From Oscillibacter sp. (GTDB lineage: Bacteria > Bacillota > Clostridia > Oscillospirales > Oscillospiraceae): a DNA stretch of 64,000 nucleotides. Shown here in pieces: positions 15,973 to 45,358 of the stretch (the stretch's first letter is position 1; each line of letters opens with the position of its first letter). The notes beneath the pieces are model-generated. The model searched no databases and was not told where the DNA came from. It saw nothing but the letters and a program-made list of their open reading frames with translations. The stretch lies in contig JALCRR010000002.1 of assembly GCA_022652815.1 (NCBI GenBank), positions 46,951-110,950 of the forward strand. Reading direction: 5' to 3'. Made by a program: the position numbers and the translations under genes.

Positions 15973-15988
15973 TGTTTCACGTGAAACA
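15973..15988. promoter_or_regulatory. parS centromere site
   Basis: Perfect palindrome TGTTTCACGTGAAACA upstream of parA. Confidence 0.95.
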
Positions 15989-18385: not shown

Positions 18386-18401
18386 TGTTTCACGTGAAAC
18401 A
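18386..18401. promoter_or_regulatory. parS centromere site
   Basis: Perfect palindrome TGTTTCACGTGAAACA directly after the stop of the hypothetical gene. Confidence 0.95.
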
Positions 18402-43457: not shown

Positions 43458-43669
43458 AAAATGTGACCATTCATACGGAATATATCCGTTTGCAGGATTT
43501 ACTGAAGCTTGCCAATGTCGTTGAATCCGGCGGCGAGGCAAAAGAACTCATTCAAAATGGTCAAGTTAAGGTCAATGGAGAAACCTGCACCATGCGGGGT
43601 AAGAAGCTCCGTCCCGGCGACTGTGCGGAATATGCCGGGCAGGAATACGGCGTTGCCTATGAGAGTTGA
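43454..43669 (+). CDS. yaaA: S4-domain RNA-binding protein YaaA
   Basis: [10 protein letters not shown]......SGGEAK..I..G.V.VNGE....RG.KL. Confidence 0.92.
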
Positions 43670-44762
43670 CGGGCTGACCCTTCAAAATTTTCGTTCCTAT
43701 CGGGAACAGTCAGTTACTTTTGACCCGGACTGTAACGTAATCTTCGGCGAAAATGCTGAGGGAAAGACCAATCTGCTGGAGGCCATCACCTATCTGTCCT
43801 GCGGACGATCCCCCAGAGCCAGGCGGGATCAAGAGCTAATCTCTTTTGGCGCCGACGATACCCGTATTACCGGAAACGTTTTTTCCCGGGAGCGGGATTT
43901 CAAGATGGAAATTGATCTTGGACGCGGAAAACGACGGAAAATGCGGGTCAACGGCGTTCCGGCAAAAAACGCAGCTGCCCTCAGCGAGGTTTTCAGTACG
44001 GTATTTTTCTGTCCCGATGACCTCTATCTTATTCGGGATGGCGCTGCGGCCAGACGAAAATTTCTGGACACCGCCCTGTGCCTGCTGCGGCCAAAATACG
44101 CCGCGGCACTTGGCGAGTATAATCGCGCCTATGAGCACAAAACGAGAATTCTGCGGGATAGCGAGGAGCGTCCAGATCTCCTAAAAACGCTGCCGGATTT
44201 CAATGAGCAGCTGATTCGCTGGGGAGCCGTGCTGATTCATTATCGGGCACAATACACCCAACGGCTGGCGGAATACGCCGCCGCCAACCATCAAGAATGC
44301 TCCGGCGGAAAGGAAACGCTGCAAATCCGCTATCAGACGATCTCAACGGTGAAGGATCCGCCGGCGGAGACGGCGGAACTTGCCAAGCAGCTCCGCACGC
44401 ATATGGAGGCGCATTTTCAAGCGGAACTTGCCTCCCGGCTGTGTCTTTCCGGTCCCCACAAAGACGATTTGCTTGTCACCATCAACGGACAGGACGCCAA
44501 GGCGTTTTCGTCTCAAGGACAGACCCGCACCGCCGCCCTTTCCATGAAACTTGCGGAACGGGAGATTTTAAAAAACGCCGTGGGCGAATACCCGGTACTG
44601 CTGCTGGACGATGTGCTCTCCGAGCTGGACCCCAAGAGACAGGAATTTGTCTTGAACCGCATTGCCGGCGGGCAAGTGTTCATCACCTGCTGCGAAGATG
44701 ATCGATTGCCGCAGATGCTCGGCGGAAAAGTGCTTCACGTGAAGCATGGCACCATCGGGTGA
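43659..44762 (+). CDS. recF: DNA replication and repair protein RecF
   Basis: NFRSY; [14 protein letters not shown]; SGPHKDDL; SQGQ.RT; [11 protein letters not shown]. Confidence 0.97.
44731..44746. promoter_or_regulatory. parS-like palindrome inside the recF tail (second copy at 44886-44901)
   Basis: TGCTTCACGTGAAGCA: perfect palindrome with two symmetric differences from TGTTTCACGTGAAACA. Confidence 0.5.
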
Positions 44763-44990
44763 TGAACACGCGACTGAGCGGAGCGATAGGAGCCGCACGT
44801 AAGCGCGTATTGAATTGCCGCGACGCAACGCGGCGCATCACTTGCTGCGAAGATGATCGATTGCCGCAGATGCTCGGCGGAAAAGTGCTTCACGTGAAGC
44901 ATGGCACCATCGGGTGATGAACACGCGACTGAGCGGAGCGATAGGGGCCGCGCGTAAGCGCGTATTGAATTGCCGCGACGCAACGCGGCG

Positions 44991-45072
44991 CATCACTTGC
45001 TGCGAAGATGACCGACTGCCGCAGATGCTCGGCGATAAGGGTATACATGTGCACGACGGAAAACTTATGTAA
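44991..45072 (+). pseudogene. Orphan divergent recF C-terminal fragment
   Basis: Encodes [26 protein letters not shown], versus [26 protein letters not shown] in recF; same length and stop position. Confidence 0.8.
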
Positions 45073-45358
45073 ACAAAAAAAACAAAGAACTTTATAAAAG
45101 CATAAAATTAAAGTTGACAATTTCCAGATTTTAAGAATGCCAAGTGCCAACGGGTGTAGAAGCAGAGACAATGCATGTTTCTCCCCCAGACGAAAAAAGT
45201 GAGTATTATCGCGTGTATTTAATGTACTGAAAATTTGCAGAAGATCAAACCTAAAAGCGTTTTTCTTTTCCACCGCTGGCACACATTCTCTTTGCACAAG
45301 AGCAAAGAAAATTAGGGGCCAGGCTCTACCGGCAGCAGTCGGCAAAAAAGGAGTCTTT

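Follow-up and report, generated by a model that had tools for sequence, protein, structure and literature searches.

The recF gene of this Oscillibacter sp. genome carries at its 3' end what is probably a tail-replacing cassette: a replacement gene end linked to a structured, gene-less element of 73 nt (E), which spreads by out-of-register recombination in the manner of the yeast WHO elements. The array lies in a window of 64,000 nucleotides, i.e. the whole stretch of DNA that was analysed, and the neighbouring genes are dnaA, dnaN, yaaA, remB, gyrB and gyrA. We favour the reading [tail A + E][tail A' + E][tail B] for its layout. Replacement of gene tails does happen on an evolutionary time scale. 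Gene-end swapping via E is apparently new to the literature; no equivalent element was found in the literature searched, either in Oscillospiraceae or in papers on REPs and MITEs. The features of the array are as follows.

43659–44762, forward strand: recF coding sequence, 367 amino acids, ending in the live tail A (translation; NCBIfam TIGR00611, E 2.5e-98)
44676–44687, forward strand: T1, the target of the guide within recF, GTGTTCATCACC, codons V-F-I-T
44681–44762, forward strand: tail A, the live recF end, class ..KV(F/L)HVKxGxIG* (sequence comparison)
44731–44746, no strand assigned: parS-like palindrome TGCTTCACGTGAAGCA in tail A, two mismatches to TGTTNCACGTGNAACA
44758–44769, forward strand: guide of E copy 1, GGTGATGAACAC, overlapping the recF stop codon TGA (44760–44762)
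44763–44835, forward strand: E copy 1, 73 nt, conserved core from 44770 (covariance model R1, 73.3 bits); hairpin P-a at 44794–44807 (GTAA loop, one A.C mismatch), GC hairpin P-b at 44817–44834
44836–44917, forward strand: tail A', a hybrid with position 7 like B and the remainder like A
44918–44990, forward strand: E copy 2 (covariance model R1, 74.4 bits); guide at 44913–44924, P-a at 44949–44962 (perfect stem), P-b at 44972–44989
44991–45072, forward strand: tail B, read as the displaced older recF end, class ..KVLHVHxGxL(V/M)*

The three 82-bp tails repeat with a period of 155 bp, as described in the first-pass annotation, whose coordinates and base differences were reproduced exactly. Tandem Repeats Finder reports a period of 155, 2.3 copies, 97% matches and a score of 673, and chance is ruled out by a wide margin. 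Tails A and A' are one base apart (44687 C / 44842 T), and the two 73-nt spacers differ by two bases (44791/44946 and 44797/44952). Tail B is identical to tail A at 41 of the first 44 positions, where all three changes are synonymous (ACC/ACT, GAT/GAC, TTG/CTG), and at only 18 of the following 38. Its length and stop position equal those of tail A; the conserved GGKV has become GDKG. The TIGR00611 profile stops at residue 344 (..FITC), so that the duplicated tail corresponds to the poorly conserved last ~23 amino acids of RecF. The duplication begins inside T1, at 44681, and T1 forms a perfect 12-nt inverted repeat with positions 44758–44769. The first 44 bp had been taken for an insertion core. 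The break in similarity at this point is real, but it marks the end of conserved RecF sequence and the start of two different tail classes; the 44 bp are the conserved-coding part of the tail.

The parS-like palindrome of tail A recurs in A' at 44886–44901 and is absent from B. Perfect parS sites are located at 15973 and 18386. Since the palindrome lies in a duplicated recF tail near oriC, its copy number could affect chromosome segregation.

E is a member of a dispersed family of structured, gene-less elements of the Oscillospiraceae. It is composed of a guide of 12–15 nt, a 5-bp hairpin with a GNNA loop (P-a) and a GC-rich hairpin (P-b). The guide is complementary to, and covaries with, the codons QVFIT of recF, which lie where the duplicated tail starts. 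In 20 distinct sequences the 12 core pairs of the recF guide helix are ~99% paired, and three pairs are changed on both sides. Intermediates with G.U pairs are present as well, so the helix between guide and T1 is most likely formed by RNA. P-a is 99% paired with two pairs changed on both sides, while its GNNA loops are variable. We take the predicted guide:T1 helix to be under selection or re-templated. Two further pairings, S2 (GCGG/CCGC) and a fold-predicted ACGCG/CGCGT stem, were discarded, because they compete with P-a and fit the covariation worse. Rfam 15 gave no match, permissive E-values included, whether for the window region or for a total of 16 loci, and none for E, a nested element or the solo copies.

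This genome contains four copies of E and another one up to 14. Most copies are solo and located ahead of terminators, mostly 7–50 nt behind a stop codon. Solo copies do not carry a guide, and some are found outside 3'-UTR contexts. E is non-coding, since its frame relative to tail 2 varies (periods of 148, 155, 156 and 163). Two 52-codon open reading frames of this genome (44759–44917 and 44914–45072) begin at GTGATG over the preceding stop codon. A coding role of the spacer, or a 'relay' reading frame, was nevertheless rejected: the four periods of the relatives put tail 2 in all three frames, and their 156-type units run into stop codons.

In the genus, ~25 of 165 species show the arrangement live tail, E, old tail behind recF, and the recF tail that follows E is always the species' own. 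The periods of these arrays range from 145 to 166 bp, and several species have three tails. In a recF tree, filled and empty species are interleaved, and the nearest relative of each filled species is empty. Guide-only and truncated remnants of the unit are present in relatives, including 'empty' ones. The displaced tail of the relatives is often frameshifted, truncated or interrupted; where tail 2 is otherwise deleted or interrupted, at least the first 17 nt of T2 still remain. The presence of the unit is patchy.

The E core is also found, with a different guide and a duplicated tail, behind four other genes: a gyrB/parE paralogue, pgk, dnaB and an amino-acid ABC permease. The gyrB/parE case occurs in this genome too (G000:C4), with a perfect duplicate of 58 nt. 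In all five gene families the guide is positioned immediately 5' of the core and pairs with the first 9–10 nt of the duplicate plus 0–5 nt upstream. The flanking direct repeat is gene-specific, 34–82 nt long, and ends 0–6 nt past the stop codon. Repeated insertion at recF, de novo in every species, was rejected, because all recF copies share guide and P-b hairpin, both of which differ from those at the other genes. The spacer had earlier been regarded as part of an integrative unit. This description has to be recast: it is a dispersed structured element with a 5' end complementary to recF, and it is encountered likewise at the four other genes.

A comparison of live and last tails in 11 species yielded 25 synonymous and three non-synonymous codon differences in the conserved 14 codons. 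Because the conserved halves differ almost only synonymously, live and displaced tails must have been working ends of different alleles. To judge by sequence, tails A and B belong to two native tail classes of the genus. The 3' half of tail A matches the native single tails of the element-free species L304, L327 and L360 at 33 of 39 positions. For the 3' half of tail B the values are 28/39 with the native tail of L339 and 26/39 with that of L313, compared with a mean of 21/39 over all tails. Both observations agree with the earlier proposal that B formerly terminated a functional recF belonging to another allele class. It had further been suggested that tail A and the spacer form a unit with its own recF end which displaced the older end downstream. 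This is borne out by comparison with element-free sister species, since tail 2 runs on into the ancestral downstream DNA that these sisters have (L335 vs L339, L015 vs L006).

In filled/empty sister pairs the odd part is the last ~39 nt of the live tail. A left crossover far upstream in recF was not observed, as the sliding identity of these pairs does not drop before the tail. The first 36–55 nt of both tails are identical in most species; either crossovers deep within the tail or later gene conversion are needed to account for this. Tail A' has the base of B at position 7 and the bases of A from position 22 on.

Based on these comparisons we propose the following course of events for the tail-replacing cassette. 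The mobile unit would consist of the replacement gene end together with E. Once the unit enters a recF allele, the upstream part of recF would be joined to the incoming tail, and the resident tail would be pushed downstream and decay there. Spread between alleles and lineages would proceed by recombination, with the short copy of the gene segment behind E serving as a second, out-of-register homology arm. In the present genome tail B would be the former native recF end of the lineage, and tail A would have arrived with the element. This direction rests on the pattern of other species, since the nearest sampled relative, L304, resembles tail A and not tail B. The doubling would be due to unequal crossing-over, with the B core and the A core as partners. 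The first-pass annotation had the unit inserting twice; because A' is a hybrid of B and A, unequal crossing-over is the better explanation of the second copy. Its suggestion of a switchable RecF C-terminus found no support: B does not contain the conserved GG(K/R)V, and the displaced tails of relatives are frequently damaged as described above. Neither a deleted form nor a circle or a transfer event was seen in the data, and the corresponding joints are absent from the short-read contigs; a metagenome scan with a 21-mer specific for tail B likewise had no match. These results speak against the cassette. So does the perfect pairing of the guide with the live gene, as a result of which the guide is unable to tell empty from filled alleles, unlike the endonuclease of WHO elements. 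A first capture of a new gene would moreover require guide, tail copy and downstream fragment to arise together.

A bolder version, which we regard as tentative and rather improbable, takes E as a gene-less, nucleic-acid-guided homing cassette. The guide would programme a break or strand exchange, and E would be copied in with the replacement gene end. With its 12–15 nt the guide would direct this event to the matching codons of a conserved housekeeping gene, and the agent could be a trans-acting enzyme of the host or the element, or the folded single strand itself.

Alternatively, the insertion could be guide-directed and catalysed by an enzyme, with E acting in cis for a system of single-strand transposition or recombination; we consider this possible but doubtful. 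The system might be of the HUH/Y1 type, as in IS200/IS605 and REP-RAYT, or use a folded hairpin substrate like an integron attC site. The guide would pair with a cleavage site in the gene, the segment T*-tail-guide-core-hairpin would be excised between T1 and T2, and the excised unit would then integrate into an empty allele at its matching site. In IS608 the cleavage site forms pairs with a guide located 5' of the hairpin foot. Here the guide is likewise directly 5' of a structured core, across the breakpoint, in five independent gene families, and the segment downstream of the breakpoint is constantly 9–10 nt long. Formally, an integron cassette has the same order (R', R'', attC centre, R') as the series T1, inverted copy, hairpins, T2. 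E is dispersed, with some solo copies in non-3'-UTR contexts, and its targets are mostly co-oriented housekeeping genes. On the other hand, no transposase or recombinase is present in the window or beside any inspected copy, the copy number is low (4–14 per genome), and known guides of this type comprise 4 nt and not 12–15. A cut at T* also predicts that tail 1 is wholly foreign, yet its first 36–55 nt are usually identical to those of tail 2 within a species.

It is unlikely that E is chiefly a cis-acting RNA device of the 3'-UTR, in which pairing of the guide with T1 or T2 creates an RNase site or a switch that responds to translation. The first nucleotides of the duplicated tail would then belong to the RNA structure, and the tail would persist for that reason. 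This would fit the retention of at least the first 17 nt of T2 despite loss or interruption of the remainder of tail 2. The guide:T1 helix and synonymous recF sites covary, with G.U intermediates, the GNNA loops of P-a are consistent with sense-strand RNA, minimum-free-energy folds contain both helices, and most solo copies are situated between stop codon and terminator. The z-scores of the folds are modest (-2.3 and -1.4), however, and solo copies have no guide. An RNA device furthermore leaves two observations unaccounted for, namely the duplication of whole tails up to the stop codon at five genes and the mark of different working alleles on the two tails. As a 'function' of the element, and not as the origin of the array, such a device would be compatible with the tail-replacing cassette.

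A tandem duplication of the recF end that arose in situ long ago and is inert, with gene conversion causing the 5' similarity and B as the decayed terminal copy, is already disfavoured and in our estimate very improbable. Arrays of identical units do exist (L016, L024, L091), A' shows recombination within the core, the remnants in 'empty' species speak for long residence, and B has non-conservative changes (GDKG). Such a duplication predicts equal numbers of spacers and tails, whereas most loci have one spacer fewer. It does not account for the same core with gene-specific guides at four other genes, for the 25:3 ratio in the conserved half or for the distinct native class of B.

An assembly artefact is an unlikely source of the array. 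In the best-matching public run (X1) the unitig common to both units has a word depth of 28.8, compared with 13.4 and 9.8 in the flanks (~2.5-fold), and the copy number of two or three units is based on short-read contigs (Logan, metagenomes) that break at the repeat. Arrays of two or three tails with the same spacer occur in records that do not carry a MAG label (Oscillibacter sp. PC13, Dysosmobacter segnis BX15). Although the genome was assembled in 69 contigs from sludge/wastewater metagenomes, repeats of this kind collapse in short-read graphs and the Logan contigs lack the spacer variants of copy A, we give hardly any credence to mis-assembly of a single tail, or of one unit, into an array, in view of the excess depth in X1, the contigs that bridge A', spacer and B without differences, and the equal architecture in many independent assemblies, some of them without a MAG label.

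In gut and wastewater Clostridia, core genes (recF, a topoisomerase subunit, pgk, dnaB) thus have their ends replaced in association with a gene-less element of 73 nt. Tail replacement linked to E produces mosaic alleles and pseudo-tails, which annotation pipelines will overlook or call wrongly. Since it covaries, the guide offers a concrete, testable handle on site choice by such gene-less hairpin repeats, a question that REP-like elements in general also pose. If the guide is mechanistically active, E would represent a natural system of minimal size for programmable insertion or recombination.

Known systems include integrative elements by which a gene regains its 3' end, such as prophage e14 and phage 21 in icd of E. 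coli and islands in tRNA and tmRNA genes. As in icd, the element supplies a copy of the gene end, and the original end is found at the far junction, differing mostly synonymously. The icd-type elements are kilobase-sized and have an integrase and a defined att core; E comprises 73 nt, and its target varies with the guide. A site-specific integrative element was rejected, because only 73 nt of non-coding DNA, with no integrase or cargo, lie between the tails. No integrase-sized open reading frame exists between dnaA and gyrA either, in line with the earlier statement that no integrase is visible nearby.

IS608 uses guides of 4 nt and encodes TnpA, and attC sites have a common R box (GTTRRRY) and require IntI. 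With both systems E shares a site set by pairing in a folded single strand, the possibility of precise excision, and the order direct site, inverted copy, hairpin, direct site. An integron attC cassette was excluded since the T sites CATCACCTG, CCACATCGCG, GCTGCCGGGC and GCGCGCCGAG are devoid of an R box. E is not a MITE: the sole inverted repeat is formed by the guide and T*, and the flanking direct repeat (34–82 nt) is gene-specific and not a target site duplication of fixed length. A diversity-generating retroelement was rejected as well, as the differences between A and B involve all bases and the neighbours are the six genes named at the outset.

Like REPs and BIMEs (PMC2817692, PMC3733652), E is a short, dispersed, gene-less repeat with GC-rich hairpins, placed mostly between stop codon and terminator on the sense strand. 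REPs are present in hundreds of copies, compared with 4–14 copies of E per genome, and neither a gene-specific guide nor a duplication of gene ends is reported for them. E departs from a REP/RAYT-type repeat in that its core begins with GCGAC, has no GTAG or CGTC tag, and is of low copy number. In addition, E combines two or three different hairpins with a long conserved single-stranded core.

In gene-end replacement E resembles the WHO elements of Torulaspora and Lachancea yeasts, which home to the 3' end of FBA1 (Coughlan et al. 2020, PMC7282813). In both cases the mobile unit is an element together with an upstream replacement for the 3' end of a conserved housekeeping gene, and a duplicate piece of that gene's 3' end lying behind the element provides a second region of homology. 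The old 3' end is shoved rightwards and decays, arrays accumulate, and alleles resemble each other upstream of a fixed point and differ strongly downstream of it (PMC7282813). The replacement 3' end upstream and the displaced old end are found at recF as they are in WHO loci. WHO elements encode an endonuclease that cuts sensitive alleles, the new end being resistant, and they operate in eukaryotic meiosis (PMC7282813). The bacterial E, in contrast, is non-coding and occurs also as solo copies, and in place of an endonuclease and a resistant new end it bears a nucleic-acid guide which matches the live gene perfectly. If the homing version of the cassette were true, E would be a bacterial, protein-free counterpart of WHO elements, with a target that is re-set by a change of guide.

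In the window, recF sits in the usual origin-proximal order (dnaA, dnaN, yaaA, recF, remB, gyrB, gyrA), with extra copies of its 3' end behind it. The first-pass annotation had described three 82-bp tails, and their positions proved exact:

43659-44762, + strand: recF
44681-44762: tail A, the live end of recF
44836-44917: tail A'
44991-45072: tail B, the displaced last end

According to Tandem Repeats Finder, 44681-45034 holds 2.3 copies of a 155-bp unit (97% matches). Tails A and A' differ by one base and the two 73-nt spacers by two. Tail B is identical to A at 41/44 and then at 18/38 positions; the three core changes are each silent, as originally claimed. Public short-read contigs end at the recF repeat. 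In the best public short-read run the unitig common to both units has about 2.5x the depth of the flanks, and contigs span A'-spacer-B with zero differences; on short reads the number of units is 2 or 3. Two 52-codon open reading frames (44759-44917 and 44914-45072) begin at a GTGATG that overlaps the stop codon before it and read across the spacer into the following tail; since relatives do not keep the frame, the two are unlikely to be genes.

An identical arrangement, with a spacer homologous to this one and here called E, was first met in the closest relatives. Of 165 genomes searched from the genus, which by contig matches is Dysosmobacter/Oscillibacter in GTDB terms, 25 have E behind recF. 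E is followed in all 25 by a second copy of the species' own recF tail and in some by a third, with periods of 145-166 bp. Via partial matches elsewhere, the conserved core of E was also located 3' of other genes:

gyrB/parE paralogue: core behind the gene, including contig C4 of the window's own genome (G000), with an exact 58-nt duplicate of the gene end
pgk: core with 34-nt duplicates, one array consisting of three 124-bp units
dnaB: core with 51-nt duplicates
amino-acid ABC permease: core in an array with a 143-bp period

The core is a dispersed repeat, with 4 copies in the window's genome and 5 to 14 in some Oscillospiraceae genomes. The majority of dispersed copies are solo, 7-50 nt past a stop codon and upstream of a terminator, and a few occur in other contexts. 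The window's genome holds two further copies of E:

G000:C4:9613-9665, - strand: L033, behind the gyrB/parE paralogue, with a perfect 58-nt gene-end duplicate and its own guide
G000:C11:21442-21495, - strand: L040, solo, without guide and without duplicate

No Rfam family matches E.

On the sense strand, read 5' to 3', the core is immediately preceded by a guide of 10-15 nt, the reverse complement of coding sequence across the start of the duplicated tail:

recF: guide (CA)GGTGATGAACAC, target GTGTTCATCACC(TG), covering codons V-F-I-T, where the conserved RecF core ends
topoisomerase gene: guide CGCGATGTGGTCC, target GGACCACATCGCG
permease: guide CCTCGGCGCGCTC, target GAGCGCGCCGAG
pgk: guide of 10-11 nt with a bulge, target the start of the pgk duplicate

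For each gene the pairing spans the first 9-10 nt of the duplicate and 0-5 nt upstream. The 12 core pairs of the recF guide helix are ~99% paired (n=20 distinct sequences), with several G.U intermediates and compensatory changes at three pairs that follow synonymous recF changes (GTG/GTA, TTC/TTT, ACC/ACG). Topoisomerase guides covary with their target likewise. As the positions that covary are upstream of the point where the duplication starts, the maintained pairing is with the target inside the live gene (T1); a three-way junction closed by the guide and the matching start of the downstream tail (T2) can also form. After the core itself, GCGACNGAGCGGAGCGANGGGAGCC, comes a 5-bp stem capped by a GNNA loop; the stem is 99% paired, with two pairs changed on both sides, and its loops vary. 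Immediately before the second tail stands a GC-rich hairpin, invariant in its stem and variable in its loops. The duplicate always ends 0-6 nt past the stop codon. The spacer is non-coding, because tail 2 lies in all three frames among species. The most conserved single-stranded part of the core (e.g. window 44776-44784) contains GAGCGGAGCGA. AGCGG is the Chi sequence of Bacillus subtilis, and E might carry a recombination hot-spot motif for this clade. In L373 (uncultured Oscillospiraceae BRZ_NE bin20), two recF tails are 217 bp apart, and the recF guide GGTGATGAACA right after the stop codon leads not into the E core but into another insert, longer and rich in hairpins.

All recF copies of E have the guide and the second hairpin in common, so E arose at recF either once or as two closely related types: '155/156', whose guide overlaps the stop codon, and '163', whose guide starts 5 nt later. 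In a tree of the recF body, species with the cassette (filled) and without it (empty) are interleaved. Among 80 further loci, the nearest relative of every filled species is an empty one (closest pair L335/L339, 89.5% identical), and some 'empty' species retain a guide-only or truncated remnant. The cassette has thus been both lost and gained, or at minimum repeatedly lost.

Three observations favour a union of different alleles over duplication in situ. Tail 2 runs on without a break into the ancestral downstream DNA, as the empty sister has it, with a parS site or the start of the overlapping next gene; the extra part is tail 1 plus E. In filled/empty sister pairs the live tail is unusually divergent in its final ~39 nt alone (identity 0.51-0.79 vs 0.78-0.89 for the body); the same stretch is mostly 0.9-1.0 identical in naive-naive controls. 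Comparing live with last tails in 11 species gives 25 synonymous and 3 non-synonymous codon changes in the first 14 codons, which are conserved (23 and 31 in the variable last 12 codons), a bias which implies that each tail once ended a working recF. The recF 3' end looks mosaic across the genus. Between L313 and L305, with recF bodies ~78% identical, the first 42 nt of the tail agree at 42/42 and the last 39 nt at 20/39 positions.

Two classes are seen among the native single tails of the genus, ..KVFHV(K/E)xGxI(G/R)-stop and ..KVLHVHxGxL(V/M/L)-stop. Tail A belongs to the first (33/39 with L304, L327 and L360) and tail B to the second (28/39 with L339 and 26/39 with L313, against a mean of 21/39 over all tails). 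Tail B retains its length and stop position, but where GG(K/R)V is conserved it reads GDKG, so selection probably no longer acts on it. The earlier suggestion that B once ended a working recF of another allele class is borne out by its second-class character and by the silent bias described for the 11 species. By analogy with other species, A would have arrived with E and B would be the earlier native end; since L304, the nearest sampled relative (73% identical), has an A-class tail, this direction is inferred from the other species. Tail A' agrees with B at position 7 (T) and with A from position 22 on, the outcome expected of unequal crossing-over in which the B core on one chromatid recombines with the A core on the other. 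The two spacers carry one change each, acquired later or differing between strains. The proposal that tail A plus spacer is a unit which has pushed an older end downstream is supported; its second copy is better accounted for by unequal crossing-over than by another insertion. A programmed switch of the RecF C-terminus, also proposed at first, is not supported: no deleted form turned up in the short-read contigs, B lacks the conserved motif, and displaced tails of relatives are often frameshifted (L029), truncated (L017, L025) or split by a second mini-element (L018, L019, L030, L031).

This second mini-element (~115 nt, GC-rich, highly structured, GGAAAGCGGCGAA...GCGGCACGATTGGCGGCCC...GCCGCAACGGTG) is nested in displaced recF tail 2 of four species (L018, L019, L030, L031 (= L310, L335, L356)) and also lies reversed, on the minus strand, behind recF of an E-less species (L309); it has no Rfam match. 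Another dispersed repeat of ~190 bp, likewise without Rfam match, is found between tail B and remB (window 45136-45344); other contigs of this genome carry at least 9 more copies, full or partial, at 70-88% identity. Sites resembling parS are:

15973-15988 and 18386-18401: perfect parS, TGTTTCACGTGAAACA
44731-44746 (tail A) and 44886-44901 (tail A'): symmetric variant with two mismatches, TGCTTCACGTGAAGCA

In relatives a true parS lies within the recF tail (..GTGTTTCACGTGGAACAG..) or immediately behind it, so that tail duplication also doubles a parS-like site near oriC.

In yeast WHO elements the unit is the element together with an upstream replacement gene end, a 3'-end fragment of the gene, placed behind the element, serves as second homology arm, and old ends are displaced downstream and then decay (PMC7282813). 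The recF cassette pattern fits this logic, and on the strength of this match we propose that the cassette passes between recF alleles by recombination with an out-of-register right arm. Such recombination would require no enzyme of the cassette's own, and the variable recF-remB interval would be immaterial to it. The main rival is an enzyme-driven, guide-directed single-strand mechanism, IS608-like or attC-like, which would account for the guide geometry and which we regard as unlikely. An RNA role for the guide helix would be compatible with out-of-register recombination as well as with the enzyme-driven mechanism. In the published literature we found no description of the E family, nor of a gene-less, gene-end-replacing element with a covarying gene-specific guide. 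Among known systems, E resembles REP-like dispersed hairpin repeats on the one hand and gene-end-replacing homing or integrative elements on the other.
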